Source: Candidatus Altiarchaeota archaeon | Lineage (GTDB): Archaea > Altiarchaeota > Altiarchaeia > IMC4 > QMZM01 | Reading direction: 5' to 3' | Length of the DNA: 64,000 nucleotides | NCBI GenBank assembly: GCA_016931955.1 | Contig: JAFGDV010000022.1 | Coordinates: 35,342-99,341 of the forward strand | Shown here: piece by piece, positions 15,708 through 25,409 of the stretch | Layout: every line of letters starts with the position of its first letter | Numbering within the stretch: the first letter of the stretch is position 1 | Position numbers and translations under genes: made by a program | The notes under the pieces: model-generated | Seen by the model: only the letters and a program-made list of their open reading frames with translations | Told to the model about the DNA's origin: nothing | Database searches by the model: none

Positions 15708-15782
15708 GCTGGGGTAGCCTAGCCCGGTCAGGCGGTCGGCTGCAGACCGACTTTAACGGGAGTTCAAATCTCTCCCCCAGCT
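15708..15782 (+). tRNA. tRNA-Cys (anticodon GCA)
   Basis: Hand-folded cloverleaf: acceptor gctgggg/ccccagc, D-stem gcct/aggc, anticodon stem gtcgg/ccgac with loop ctGCAga, T-arm gggag-ttcaaat-ctctc, discriminator t. No encoded CCA. Confidence 0.75.
15768..15782. repeat. attL core (15-bp direct repeat, tRNA 3' end)
   Basis: Exact match to 25395-25409. Confidence 0.75.
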
Positions 15783-15903
15783 CTAATAGTTTAGGGAAAA
15801 ACGGCAGATTATTAAGGTTGAAATACCTAAAAACCTAAGTAAGCCACGTATCCCCACAAAGAGGAGGAGGAAAAGCCACGGAAAACTCCCTTTAGGGGAT
15901 AAA

Positions 15904-17115
15904 ATGAAAAAGAAACAAAGTGAGTTAGACATATATGGCTTAGATGAACGGTTCTCTAAGTTTGATGAACGCATAAGAAACTCTGATCTGATCTGTGAAA
16001 ACAAAGACCTTGTTATAGCCTTTAAGCGGAAAGTGTATTCTGCCTCTTTGATGGGGAAACACAGGATACACAAATACGAGGTGTTCTTTAAAAACTATGA
16101 CAGACTATTGCAGAAACCCTTTAACGAGGCCACAAGAGACGATCTTGAGGAGGTGGTATCCAAAGTCAAGGATAACCCAGAGTGGAAGGAACTCACAAAG
16201 AGAGACTTTCTATTATGTCTTAAACGCTACTATAAGATAGCCTCCGACCTGCAGGATGAAAGCGAGTACCCAGAATTGGTTAAGTGGATTAAGACACCCA
16301 AAGTCAAAGAGCCACCGATAAACTATGACGAAATACCGTCATGGGATGACGTGGTTAAGATGGCTAATTACACTCTTAACGCAAGAGACGAAGCCCTTAT
16401 TAAGAGTATCTGGGAGGCAGGGAATAGAATAGGCGAACACCTGACCTTGCGTGTCTGTGATGTTGAGGAGGTGGAAACTGGCTTATACTTGAATATCTGG
16501 AAAAGCAAAACCGATCCGCGTAAGGTTTTCATTAAGCTGTCAGCGGAGGACATACTTTGTTGGTTGAACATGCACCCATTAAGACATGACGGTGACGCAC
16601 CCTTATTCTGTAAACTCAAAAGGGGAGAGCATAACACGGTAATAGGCCACAAATACGCCTATGAACTGATGAAACGGCTTAAGAAGAGAGCTAAGATAAA
16701 CAAGAAAGTGTCTCCCCACATGCTCAGACACGGATCGGCAAGTTATTTCTCTGATTGGTTGAGTGACTCGGACATGGATACTAAGTATGGGTGGCGTATA
16801 GGGAGTAAGATTAAGGCACGGTACACTCACAAGAACCCGAAAAGTGTTGAGGCCAAGATAAGGAAAATGGCAGGAGAGGAAGAGAACGGAGTACAAAACA
16901 TTTACGAGGAAATGCAGGAGGAACTTATCAGGTGTCTGTTCTGTGATAAACTCAACAGTCCAAGCCGTAAAACATGTTGGTACTGTAAGCATATTCTTAA
17001 GAGAGAGTTGAGCGACATAGTGCAATTAGTTAAAGAAAGCATGGAATCTAAGATAGATGAGATAGTGTTGAATGCTATTGAGGGGAAAACCAGTAAAAGG
17101 CAAACAATAAAATAG
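15904..17115 (+). CDS. tyrosine recombinase / integrase (intact, pNOB8-like arrangement) with C-terminal Zn ribbon
   Basis: Box I Arg 'LTLRVCDVEEV'. Box II 'HMLRHGSASY' (H-x-x-R). Tyr-containing 'KARYTHKNP'. C-terminal 'CLFCDKLNSPSRKTCWYCKH'. Adjacent to the tRNA att site. Confidence 0.8.
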   Translation: MKKKQSELDIYGLDERFSKFDERIRNSDLICENKDLVIAFKRKVYSASLMGKHRIHKYEVFFKNYDRLLQKPFNEATRDDLEEVVSKVKDNPEWKELTKRDFLLCLKRYYKIASDLQDESEYPELVKWIKTPKVKEPPINYDEIPSWDDVVKMANYTLNARDEALIKSIWEAGNRIGEHLTLRVCDVEEVETGLYLNIWKSKTDPRKVFIKLSAEDILCWLNMHPLRHDGDAPLFCKLKRGEHNTVIGHKYAYELMKRLKKRAKINKKVSPHMLRHGSASYFSDWLSDSDMDTKYGWRIGSKIKARYTHKNPKSVEAKIRKMAGEEENGVQNIYEEMQEELIRCLFCDKLNSPSRKTCWYCKHILKRELSDIVQLVKESMESKIDEIVLNAIEGKTSKRQTIK

Positions 17116-17119
17116 TGTC

Positions 17120-18222
17120 CTTATACAATTCTCTCTCTGTGAAATATGCAGTACATGGTTGCGTGTGAGATCATTGTATGGATTGTTTTCACAGAGGGAG
17201 ACCTTTTCTTATTTATTTGTGTCAGATATGGTTTTTCTGAGTTTTGGATAAGAAACCCATTCTATAAGTATATAGGGTATGGTTTTTTAGGTTTTTTCTA
17301 AAAGTTTGAGACTGAAAAACCTCTCTTTGTTTTTCACCGCTATCGGTTAAAAAAGGGGGTTTAATGGGTGAGAACTCATTTAGACGATCTCCTAAACACC
17401 CTGAAAAGTGAGGTTTTGGGTTATCCAAATTGTGCAAGTTTAGGTCTATGAGAGGGATATGTGCAGAGGAGTCTATCATTCTGGTCTGCGTAAGACAGAG
17501 CTACATACAAACAACTTAGGGGGTTTTCCTATATATAGGAGTCTAAATAGTCTCAATTCATTAATGTCATGTTGGGGGAGTATTCTATACATAGATTCCT
17601 AAAATTTCTAAAATATTTTATTTTTTTAGAATGTAAACCAAAAAACTAATTATCATATAATAAATATGTTTTTCTAAACTGAATTAAGTTTTTTGGTTTC
17701 GTTTCGAAAGATTTGTTTAAACAAATTGGGGGGTTTTTGTATATGTTTTTGGGGGTGATCTCAACCTGCATAAGTGAGTGATTGAGTTACCCTTTCATGT
17801 CTGAGTGTGGCATAAAAAACCGTTTCCACATTTAAGAGGGCAATAATTTAACTATATATTAGAATAAATGACAGTCTAAGAAAAAGTTACTTACATGTTA
17901 CAACGGAAGGACATAATATTATCTAAATATGTGATCCAAAAAAAAGTTTCTGTTCAATGTTAAGAAACTGGGGTAATATCTATCTAAATATATATATTAT
18001 AATATAGTGCAAACATAACACACACTAAGAGACGTTTTAACTAACTAATTGATTGATTGAATGAGTCTCCAATTTACTACGATAAGAATCTCTCTCCTGT
18101 GAATTTTTCCTTAGTTTTTGGTTCAATGGACTTGACACCTCTGACATATCTGACACCTCTGGTCGCTTGATACGTTTTGAGAGGTGTCACACTCTGACAC
18201 CTCTGAAAAAAAACTATAATTT
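17120..18222. promoter_or_regulatory. AT-rich non-coding region of the element; candidate replication origin / control region
   Basis: About 1.1 kb with almost no ORFs and very low GC. Contains the iteron cluster at 18133-18205. Confidence 0.45.
18133..18205. repeat. iteron cluster: 'tgacacctctg' x3 direct plus 1 inverted
   Basis: Direct copies at 18133-18143, 18151-18161 and 18195-18205. Inverted copy 'gagaggtgtca' at 18179-18189. Confidence 0.7.
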
Positions 18223-18224
18223 CT

Positions 18225-23775: not shown

Positions 23776-24432
23776 GGAAAAAATGAAAGTTTCTCACATT
23801 ACTCCATACCTGTTCTGTCTATCTGGGGTTCAAAAGGCAGGATGGGGGAGATATAAACCCTCCTATGAGCCCTCTGAGGAAGAGGGAAAGGCGTGGATCA
23901 TGACGAATACCAAAAAGGGGTTCACCTCAACTTTAAACGGTTGAAAGAAACTCACAACCACCTTATAGTCGATAGGGTTTTTCCCTGAGAGGCGTTCACG
24001 TGACCATAAAGCCTTGAATAGAAGCGAGGTATGACAAAGAAAATGATGAACGAAGACAGGTTGCTTGAGTTATTCAATGAACTTGATACGACTTTGATGA
24101 AAGTGGAGGTCATAGCAAGAGACGTTCACCGTCTCCGTGTGAAAATATTAAAGTGCTTAACTGAAGATGAAAAAAGTTGAATTTGATGAACGATTGACGG
24201 AAATAGACACTCAATTTAAGAAGATCGTTGAAGACTTGGAAAAACTTGAGTTTCTTTTCTGTGACTTAGTGGACTCTTTAACGAGTTTGGAGGCTGAGAG
24301 ACATGATTGAGTATGTGTTATTTTTACTGGGTTTGTTTGTTGTCTTATGGCTATTGTTTAGTTTTTTCGACAGCATAATGTGGCCTATACTGTTTTTAGG
24401 GGTGGTTCTCTTGTTTTTGGGCGTATGTAAGC

Positions 24433-24981
24433 TTGTGGGGTGGATATGAAATGGAGTTATGGGTTTTAGCGTTAATAGGTTTCGGTTTATGTGTTTTCTT
24501 GGCCATGATAGGGTTTATCTTAGTTAAACGGTTCAAGCATAAACAAGAACCAGTAATTTCACAGACACAAGAAAAAAAAACTGAGGTGCGGATTATTCGG
24601 TGTGATGACACTTACCGCATTGAGTGGCCTAATGAGGTTCTCAGCATTGAGGGAGGTGATGTTGAGGGCTTAAAGAGGTACTTAGATGGTCAAATTAAGC
24701 GGTTATCTTTTGTCGGGGAGTGTGTGAGTAACTTAGGCGTGTATTATCCTGACTTTGATCCGCCTAAAGAAGAAGGAGAGAAGGAGGAGGTTTTGAAACC
24801 CATTGATGAGACCGTTAAAATAATACCTGATTTGAGTTTTAGAGAGGTTGAGGAGATCAAGGAAACCCTCACCAGAGAAAACGGACAAACACCAACTAAG
24901 AGAAAGTTAGCGTGGCATATAGCTAAAGTTTACGGTGTTTCCATTGGTGAGGCATGGAATATACTTAAAAGAGGAGACTGA
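24433..24981 (+). CDS. hypothetical membrane-anchored protein (element)
   Basis: N-terminal TM 'LWVLALIGFGLCVFLAMIGFILV'. Preceded by three ~48-aa overlapping mini-ORFs at 24035-24450. Confidence 0.4.
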   Translation: MWGGYEMELWVLALIGFGLCVFLAMIGFILVKRFKHKQEPVISQTQEKKTEVRIIRCDDTYRIEWPNEVLSIEGGDVEGLKRYLDGQIKRLSFVGECVSNLGVYYPDFDPPKEEGEKEEVLKPIDETVKIIPDLSFREVEEIKETLTRENGQTPTKRKLAWHIAKVYGVSIGEAWNILKRGD

Positions 24982-25155
24982 AATGAAAGCGAAACTAAGC
25001 ATTGAGGAGGTCATACAGAAAGTAGAGGAAAGACCAGAGATACTTGACTACTTGCCTAAACCGTATAAAACCTATATTCAGGCTCTCATGAGAGACAAGA
25101 AAAAGGGATACGTGGCTGATCCCAGAGGGAGGGCTAAGAAAGGCTCTCCCTCACC

Positions 25156-25371
25156 TTAATCCTTGCTTTCCGTGAGTTCAAGGTTTCCCCTCTCGTTGAA
25201 CTCTATGTCTATCTTTTGTCCTCTTCCCCATTTCTTTGCTTTTACGACTGATTTGGGGAGGGTTAGGAAAAATTGTCCGTTTTGGCTTTCTTGCAGGATC
25301 ACTTTCTTAATACCTATAATTTTACTGATGATACTATATGTTTTTATACTTAAAAGCACATAAATAACCAA
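25156..25371 (-). CDS. AbrB/SpoVT (swapped-hairpin)-like small DNA-binding protein
   Basis: 'FFLTLPKSVVKAKKWGRGQKIDIEF' resembles the looped-hinge motif. Last gene before attR. Confidence 0.4.
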   Translation of the reverse strand: MVIYVLLSIKTYSIISKIIGIKKVILQESQNGQFFLTLPKSVVKAKKWGRGQKIDIEFNERGNLELTESKD

Positions 25372-25394
25372 AGGGAAAATCCATAAAAGCTTTT

Positions 25395-25409
25395 ATCTCT
25401 CCCCCAGCT
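25395..25409. repeat. attR core (15-bp direct repeat)
   Basis: Exact match to the tRNA-Cys 3' end at 15768-15782. Confidence 0.75.

Follow-up and report, generated by a model that had tools for sequence, protein, structure and literature searches.

What occupies the 9.6 kb that follow the only tRNA gene in this stretch of a Candidatus Altiarchaeota archaeon genome, and is it a mobile element? A sequence-only reading of the stretch (64 kb in full, referred to below as the window) took the segment for a cryptic plasmid or provirus integrated in tRNA-Cys. Here, we describe a computational analysis that supports this view: the segment carries an intact integrase and a primase-polymerase replicon, and no structural protein family was recognized among its genes. 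We conclude that it is probably a 9,627-bp cryptic integrated, self-replicating plasmid-like element of this archaeon.

Altiarchaeota are abundant subsurface carbon fixers. The mobile elements known from the phylum are a few predicted lytic viruses (PMC8324899), and a 2026 survey of 92 Altiarchaeota genomes found no provirus (PMC13573593). The element described here is cleanly delimited and lies in a phylum without reported integrated elements.

Boundaries of the element

The insertion site and the two ends of the element are as follows.

15708-15782, plus strand: host tRNA-Cys(GCA), intact after integration; its last 15 nt are attL
15768-15782, plus strand: attL core ATCTCTCCCCCAGCT, one of only two copies in 64 kb
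25395-25409, plus strand: attR core ATCTCTCCCCCAGCT, the second of the two copies in 64 kb

The one tRNA that ARAGORN detects in the window is a tRNA-Cys(GCA) at 15708-15783 on the plus strand, which the Rfam model RF00005 places at 15708-15782 with 53.5 bits. Its 3'-terminal 15 nt, discriminator base included, recur once, at the far end of the element, and the perfect repeat proposed from the sequence is therefore exact. The concern that such a repeat might be common elsewhere did not materialize within the 64 kb, where allowing up to two mismatches yields no further copies (0.11 expected). Identity between the two repeats stops exactly at the limits of the 15-mer on both sides. We thus find what is looked for in integration at a tRNA gene, a direct repeat of the 3' end with the tRNA left intact. 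The element measures 9,627 bp with one core copy counted, and its GC fraction is 0.33-0.40 across 17-25 kb against ~0.47 in the flanks.

The integrase and its family

Two features lie immediately inside the left end.

15904-17115, plus strand: tyrosine integrase, 403 aa (Pfam Phage_integrase, E 1.5e-11)
15841-15880, plus strand: AAGCCACG box at 15841-15848 and again at 15873-15880, in both cases with a short CCC...GGG palindrome after it, read from the sequence

The integrase gene starts 121 bp after attL. Its product has a complete catalytic set (R161, K202, H272, R275, W297 and Y307) and a C-terminal zinc ribbon of the form CxxC-N10-CxxC (C344, C347, C358 and C361). The closest solved structure is that of archaeal XerA (PDB 4a8e, E 2.3e-6), and the score of 72 bits against the NCBIfam XerA model is so far under the cut-off of 220 bits that the protein is not a cellular XerA. 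The att core, at 15768-15782, lies upstream of and outside the uninterrupted open reading frame (ORF) of the integrase, which bears out, for the gene arrangement, the earlier assignment to a non-split 'pNOB8-type' rather than an SSV-type.

All six catalytic residues and all four ribbon cysteines are kept in 14 close homologues (45-83% identity; alignment A3), and in a wider alignment of 19 members (A2) the cysteines are invariant or nearly so. The integrases of ThalV2 and GacPV1 (Archaeoglobi pleolipovirus), 27-29% identical over 83-89% of the protein, have the same ribbon and are, with XerA, the nearest characterized relatives found. The ribbon is therefore a feature of a clade and not a peculiarity of this integrase; the sequence-only reading was right about the 403-aa recombinase and its four-cysteine motif, and mistaken in calling the motif unusual.

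The family also has a consistent habit. Wherever a homologue (50-84% identity) has enough flanking sequence, its gene lies ~110-130 bp downstream of a tRNA: tRNA-Cys on L031 (84% identical) and L027 (72%), tRNA-Thr(TGT) on L020, L021, L023 and L026, and tRNA-Leu(CAA) on L024 and L025. The cargo differs from one of these contigs to another; that of the 8.5-kb element on L020, whose limits are set by 12 nt repeated from the 3' end of tRNA-Thr, is wholly unlike that of the element described here. The two AAGCCACG boxes shortly before the integrase gene may be binding sites for the integrase or a regulator; the same two-unit layout of box and palindrome, with different box sequences, precedes the related integrases of L031, L027, L020 and L024. 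A scan of metagenome contigs with the integrase alignment returned just five short loci, and a search of IMG/VR one distant match only (24% identity).

The replication protein and its iterons

The replicon comprises a large protein, a non-coding region and two clusters of repeats.

19214-22069, plus strand: replication protein, 951 aa
17116-18224, unstranded: 1.1-kb non-coding region, GC 0.325, the lowest in the window
18117-18205, plus strand: iteron cluster A, a triplet of 9-bp-period units TTGACACCTCTGACATATCTGACACCTCTG with one inverted and one direct single unit
21636-21790, unstranded: iteron cluster B, one triplet oriented as in cluster A and two inverted

Within the replication protein, the approximate domains are as follows.

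aa 1-235: AEP primase-polymerase
aa 250-335: helix-bundle
aa 350-780: MCM-like AAA+ NTPase
aa 784-867: disordered linker
aa 868-951: C-terminal helical region

Pfam gives the protein a weak DUF3987 match only, and recognizable domains appear only in its distant homologues, some of which match the NrS-1 helix-bundle, D5_N, DUF5906 or BT4734_N models. When the protein is aligned with 21 homologues, D84, S137-G-N-G140, D183 and R190 are invariant; these are AEP motifs I to III, and they confirm the primase-polymerase gene that had been called from the sequence. PDB sequence searches, with the single sequence or a 22-sequence profile, gave nothing useful, so structure prediction was needed. The mean pLDDT of the AlphaFold2 model is 75.8, rising to ~90 in the N-terminal domain, and the top 50 Foldseek matches to it in the PDB are all MCM helicases (best E 4.7e-9). 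Judged by its motifs and predicted structure, the protein joins a primase-polymerase, a helix-bundle and an MCM-like AAA+ helicase domain. The helicase half is thus MCM-like and not of the D5 or superfamily 3 type.

Relatives of this protein are scattered. We found no match among PLSDB plasmids and none in IMG/VR, and two phage records give weak N-terminal matches. L013 has a 10.1-kb element whose gene order matches that in the window (tRNA, integrase, minus-strand ORF, small ORFs, replication gene). The replication protein of this element is 33% identical and its integrase just 23%, and its limits are marked by 12 nt repeated from the 3' end of a tRNA gene with an intron. L016 (11,219 nt, with a 30-nt terminal overlap) is probably a complete free circle. 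It encodes a 1105-aa homologue, other proteins of no assigned function and no integrase, and may be a plasmid or virus in the free state whose replicon belongs to this family. What L013 and L016 have in common with the element is the replication gene only. A PHROG scan of the proteins of L015 and L016, both contigs with replication-protein homologues, gave coiled-coil noise only.

The iterons share the consensus CTGACACCTCTG with a 9-bp period, and the two clusters are 3.5 kb apart. Cluster A sits at the edge of the AT-rich non-coding region. Cluster B falls in the part of the replication ORF that codes for the low-confidence linker (aa 784-867), and encodes there the repeated peptide PEMSEVSEVT. 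With up to two mismatches there are 19 matches in the window, 13 of them in the two clusters, against 5.9 expected window-wide, and none of 100 shuffles reached 19. The region at 17116-18224, which has no Rfam match, had been described as origin-like; its GC minimum and the iterons at 18117-18205 agree with that description. We regard it as a candidate replication origin, in which cluster A and the AT-rich stretch would form the origin proper and the iterons would be bound by the initiator or by the 218-aa winged-helix-like protein listed below.

Some further repeats may be recorded beside these. Cluster B had been missed by the sequence-only reading. A dispersed motif, TCTGTGAAA, has nine copies over 15783-25409 on both strands, including an inverted pair at 17136-17195, and may be an operator for a small regulator. 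At L023 3455-3625, six copies of ATATCTGCA in both orientations lie inside a 736-aa ORF of a tRNA-Thr-integrated element, which is another instance of iteron-like repeats inside a coding region.

A histone-fold module

Downstream of the replication gene are two adjacent genes.

23082-23453, plus strand: histone-fold protein, 123 aa from an internal ATG (Pfam Histone, 27.3 bits; curated cut-off 26.4)
23464-23775, plus strand: 103-aa partner ORF, 42% identical to the ORF behind the histone P0083 on contig L033

An exhaustive HMMER search of 1.84 billion representative proteins returned the element histone itself and one other cluster, P0083 (33% identity, E 1.7e-9), which in turn scores 27.4 bits on CBFD_NFYB_HMF (cut-off 21.4). 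A profile of these two sequences (A4) matches only histones in the PDB, with archaeal HmvA first (8bdk, E 1.5e-5), followed by H2B, H3 and HMfB. The AlphaFold2 model has a pLDDT of just 60.5; its helices, at 25-35, 42-69 and 76-122, have histone-fold lengths (11, 28 and 47 residues), and the top Foldseek matches to this low-confidence model are nearly all histones, none of them significant (best E 1.2). By its profile matches, then, the protein has a histone fold, with a tail rich in lysine at the N-terminus and, by prediction, a long helix at the C-terminus. No relatives of it were found in IMG/VR.

The gene for P0083, on L033, comes shortly after one for a replication protein of another kind (Prim-Pol/PriCT_1) and after the iteron cluster of that replicon. 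A word-indexed homologue search with the 103-aa partner returned the query alone. Histone and partner occur together both in the window and on L033 and thus make up a conserved pair of genes, present on primase-polymerase replicons that are unrelated to each other.

Several observations touch on this module. The histone-fold gene had not been noticed in the sequence-only reading. The public gene call opens the same frame at 22821 and gives 210 aa; at 22794-23113 the 114-aa zinc-ribbon ORF listed below overlaps this N-terminal extension in a different frame, and the choice of start is ambiguous. The iterons of L033 are ten copies of AACGCAACA at 2779-3133, between the Prim-Pol/PriCT_1 gene and the histone gene, and a 50-aa ORF called within them is probably not real. 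The host has a histone-like gene of its own adjoining tRNA-Cys (15159-15578, minus strand). Its 139-aa product starts with a strongly acidic tail, has a long helical stretch towards the C-terminus, gives a weak histone-fold match (CBFD_NFYB_HMF, E 0.03), is 66-83% identical in five Altiarchaeota contigs (A5) and fits the published description of acidic-tailed coiled-coil histones. That the element histone might be a copy of this neighbour was ruled out by BLASTP and hhalign (probability 0.4%).

Small ORFs and the search for structural genes

The remaining genes of the element are small.

18225-18881, minus strand: 218-aa basic protein, pI 10.0 (Pfam HTH_27, E 0.0063, below the curated cut-off)
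19000-19236, plus strand: 78-aa ribbon-helix-helix (RHH)-like protein (weak: Pfam RHH_1, E 0.064; PHROG Arc-like repressor, E 0.009)
22066-22356, plus strand: 96-aa ORF, ATGA overlap with the replication-gene stop, no family match
22388-22618, plus strand: 76-aa helical ORF
22623-23113, plus strand: zinc-ribbon ORFs of 49 aa (22623-22772) and 114 aa (22769-23113), CxxC...CxxC, weak zinc-ribbon Pfam matches
23783-24310, plus strand: three small ORFs (53, 49 and 47 aa), no matches
24303-24981, plus strand: 48-aa mostly hydrophobic protein, then a 176-182-aa protein with an N-terminal membrane anchor (hydropathy scan; no family matches)
24935-25159, plus strand: small ORF, 58-74 aa, with homologues adjoining integrases in L020 and L023
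25156-25371, minus strand: 71-aa AbrB-like ORF at the right end, reading away from attR, with a 57% identical ORF in the tRNA-Leu element L024

We scanned all 17 ORFs of the element against Pfam and PHROGs, and ten of them against NCBIfam. No capsid, portal, terminase or conjugation family was detected, as the sequence-only reading had anticipated. Its labels for the small ORFs fared less evenly: the zinc-ribbon motifs are there, with weak Pfam matches, the RHH call is weak, and the AbrB-like ORF has no Pfam match. The last of these matches PHROG_661 (E 1.2e-4), whose function is unassigned, and the label derives from its sequence pattern. The 218-aa protein is possibly a winged-helix regulator, on the weak evidence of the listed match. 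The RHH-like ORF overlaps the start of the replication gene, and the ORF at 24935-25159 travels with the integrase family. The large ORFs are uninterrupted.

An AbrB-like ORF is also found at this locus in the closest related metagenome-assembled genome (MAG), 160 bp past tRNA-Cys (L001 8780-9044, plus strand in the locus). Over 31 aa it is 48% identical to the ORF at the right end of the element, and it contains an internal duplication. As a decayed remnant of a sister element it was rejected, there being no integrase nearby and no second att copy.

The locus in related genomes

The genes upstream of tRNA-Cys include those for aIF2-beta and the acidic-tailed histone-like protein. These upstream genes are 59-79% identical to those on MAG contigs of Candidatus Altiarchaeota and Altiarchaeales (61-79% for flanking genes against Altiarchaeota MAGs), and the replication protein is identical to NCBI protein JW778_04005 (Candidatus Altiarchaeota archaeon), encoded on a contig of 115.8 kb.

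Relatives have tRNA-Cys at the equivalent place, after the histone-like gene, and no element genes behind it. On L001 it is followed by the AbrB-like ORF, membrane proteins, gpmA and uvrABC, on L006 it is joined directly to homologues of the window genes at 30153-31527 (the adenylate kinase cluster), and on L002 and L010 unrelated sequence follows. The element is therefore lineage-specific; the possibility, raised earlier, that relatives might carry the same gene content at this tRNA is contradicted by the genomes examined. Between the occupied L027 and the unoccupied L002, the 3' half of the tRNA-Cys intron and the 3' exon are nearly base-for-base identical, that 3' part being all of the tRNA-Cys that the L027 contig holds.

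What kind of element?

Mobility is suggested by the combination of perfect att repeats, an intact integrase and the behaviour of the integrase family. Several points weigh against a mobile, self-replicating plasmid-like element. To the right of tRNA-Cys the available relatives are not syntenic, and a strict empty-site allele is therefore lacking. The attB junction GAGTTCAAATCTCTCCCCCAGCTAACAT, in which tRNA-Cys is joined to the flank from 25410 onward, has no exact match in metagenome contigs, nor has the attP junction in viral contigs, so neither of the two checks proposed in the sequence-only reading, for an empty site and for an excised circle, succeeded; the relatives lack the element and differ in their right flank. 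An independent assembly of run SRR13394437 gives the integrated form only. The P-loop (Walker A) of the helicase domain reads GHGKQ in the sequence instead of the usual GK[ST], and the helicase, iteron-binding and origin activities are predictions. Finally, because most of the small ORFs lack homologues, a virion or transfer function may be concealed among them.

This last point is where a provirus would have to be sought. Such a provirus would belong to a small enveloped archaeal virus, pleomorphic or spindle-like, with virion proteins too divergent to recognize, and we consider it unlikely. In its favour, the nearest integrases in annotated viruses are those of ThalV2 and GacPV1 (27-29% identity, with the shared ribbon), viruses of a type that likewise integrates beside tRNA genes (PMC10919331), and the element encodes a strongly hydrophobic 48-aa protein and a membrane-anchored one of 176-182 aa, most of its ORFs being orphans. 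However, integrases move freely between plasmids and viruses, and when every ORF of the element was compared by BLASTP with the proteomes of ThalV2 and GacPV1, the integrase alone gave a match. A Pleolipoviridae provirus is recognized by a VP4-like fusogen and a VP3-like membrane protein; the element shows no similarity to either, and no homologue of the pleolipovirus NTPase was found. Annotated VP4-like fusogens have ~500 aa, whereas no ORF here, integrase and replication protein aside, exceeds ~220 aa. Nor was there a PHROG structural match, and the replication protein and histone are without IMG/VR relatives.

A satellite that integrates and replicates by itself but depends on an Altiarchaeota helper virus for packaging and spread would explain why no structural genes of its own were detected, and we hold it to be rather improbable. 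The models would be phage P4 or pSSVx and pSSVi of Sulfolobus. P4 has an integrase, the alpha primase-helicase and ori/crr iterons; the element likewise makes do with few genes, for an integrase, a primase-helicase and small regulators, and has one repeat in two clusters that lie apart. Potential helpers exist, in that lytic Altiarchaeota viruses are known (PMC8324899). On the other hand, the searches turned up no gene or sequence in common with a known virus, there is no candidate for a packaging signal or for a gene that would interact with a helper, and the resemblance to P4 is putative.

Nor do we give much credence to a fixed or defective genomic island that has lost excision, whose chances we put marginally lower again. 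It would account for the integrated state being the only one seen, but the att repeats are perfect, every catalytic residue of the integrase is present, the large ORFs are uninterrupted and the difference in GC from the host has not been ameliorated; the junction searches, moreover, were exact-match searches of collections that may not contain this population. A chance repeat amid ordinary host genes is effectively refuted, since apart from its shortness everything speaks against it: the expectation of 0.11 even at two mismatches, its coincidence with the tRNA 3' end beside an integrase, the GC trough, and the absence of all of the element's genes from this locus in related genomes.

For the integrated plasmid-like element that we favour, the following cycle can be proposed. 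The integrase would recombine the 15-bp attP core of a circle with the identical 3' end of tRNA-Cys (attB), rebuilding an intact tRNA at attL and leaving a second core copy at attR. Because its gene lies outside the core, the integrase stays whole and could catalyse excision. The excised circle would be replicated by its own 951-aa initiator, with the iterons recognized by a DNA-binding part of the initiator or by the winged-helix-like protein. The RHH, winged-helix, zinc-ribbon and AbrB-like small proteins would control expression, and the histone-fold protein and its 103-aa partner may bind or organize DNA. Excision, autonomous replication, the iterons as origin and the role of the histone module are all steps that we infer.

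A bolder version of this proposal, which we advance tentatively and consider doubtful, is that the element represents an undescribed group of integrative replicons of Altiarchaeota and related archaea with their own chromatin module, the origin being split over iteron clusters A and B. Histone and partner would then act on the DNA of the element, by coating, bridging or silencing it, or else disturb the chromatin of the host. If so, this would be a mobile element, plasmid- or satellite-like, with chromatin specific to it, in a phylum from which no integrated element has been reported.

Other features of the locus

We considered whether 25410-30150 could be the remnant of a second element, an idea that arose from the direct joining of tRNA-Cys to the adenylate kinase cluster on L006. 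It was rejected: the region holds ordinary host genes, namely threonine-rich lipoproteins and a 369-aa membrane protein that is CorA-like by eye, with no integrase and no att copy. The three predicted lipoproteins (25544-28815) have long threonine-rich linkers, and one of them is PsbP-like (E 4.4e-15). They fill a variable stretch, missing on L006, that reaches from the element to the CorA-like membrane protein (28998-30107).

The tRNA-Cys gene contains an intron in several Altiarchaeota contigs (L002 2805-2933, L004 1-76, L005 1-91, L010 127-168 and L027 1-90), and these genes were missed by ARAGORN; it is intron-free in the window, L001 and L031. The end of the L005 contig falls exactly within the att core (…ATCTCCCCCCC), perhaps because strains differ at this site.

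Elsewhere in the window there are two tandem repeats in coding sequence. One, of 72 nt in 3.3 copies (34997-35231), lies within a 1880-aa ORF (33955-39597, minus strand). The other, of 69 nt in 2.2 copies that are 100% identical (52137-52290), lies within a 495-aa ORF (51699-53186, plus strand) and encodes a cysteine-rich repeat.

Implications

The tRNA-targeting integrase family can be used to mine further elements in the phylum, and the compact replicon of integrase, candidate origin and replication protein could seed genetic tools for uncultivated Altiarchaeota. The element also provides a rare case of a histone on an archaeal mobile element, which bears on how histones have spread and diversified outside cellular chromosomes.

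Comparison with known systems

The class that the element resembles is that of the cryptic integrated elements (CIE) defined for Thaumarchaeota by Krupovic et al. 2019 (PMC6563490). Like these, it has a tyrosine integrase, short direct repeats, a primase-polymerase and/or MCM replication protein, putative regulators of the RHH or winged helix-turn-helix kind and a size of <20 kb. As in these, integrase and replication genes are present and recognizable virion or conjugation genes are not. It differs in its host phylum, Altiarchaeota, and adds a histone-fold module and iterons inside the replication gene. CIE have no signature gene, so the class is a category and not a family.

Fusions of primase-polymerase and MCM are known from integrated elements as PrimQH-type initiators and from the Bacillus cereus prophage protein BcMCM (Kazlauskas et al. 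2018, PMC5862659). The likeness to the PrimQH type is one of architecture alone: a single polypeptide with AEP, an alpha-helical linker domain and an MCM-family helicase, on att-flanked elements in tRNA genes. The published architectures have a winged-helix domain after the helicase (PMC5862659). In our element, by contrast, the Walker A motif is atypical (GHGKQ) and the linker contains iterons.

In the pRN1-type plasmids of Sulfolobales, a small RHH-like ORF overlaps the start of the replication gene; the family has integrated or satellite relatives in pXQ1, pSSVi and pSSVx. The element has the corresponding primase-polymerase with helix-bundle and a CopG-like gene before it, though the RHH call is weak. 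It has neither a superfamily 3 helicase nor homology to ORF904; its helicase is MCM-like AAA+ instead, no PlrA/ORF80 homologue was recognized and there is no similarity to PLSDB plasmids. Integrated pRN relatives have SSV-type integrases that are split on integration, whereas the element's integrase is whole.

In the temperate Archaeoglobi pleolipoviruses, the integration site adjoins a tRNA gene and the integrase lies by one of the att sites (PMC10919331). The ThalV2 and GacPV1 integrases share with that of the element their overall architecture, the C-terminal CxxC...CxxC ribbon and the position by att next to a tRNA, and nothing else is common to these viruses and the element.

Coiled-coil (CC) histones have been reported from Altiarchaeota, and plasmids of haloarchaea carry face-to-face histones (Schwab et al. 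2024, PMC11390915). The element histone resembles the bridging CC histones in having a histone fold followed by a long C-terminal helix, the helix being predicted here at low confidence. Typical CC tails are acidic, whereas this one is basic; the RxTxxxxD 'R-D clamp' is not conserved (alignment A4), no relation to the acidic-tailed histone-like gene of the host could be detected, and the protein has a dedicated 103-aa partner gene. Taken as a whole, an integrase with a primase-polymerase/MCM replicon at a tRNA gene belongs to a class of element that is already well known, and the unusual details are the histone module and the iterons inside the replication gene.

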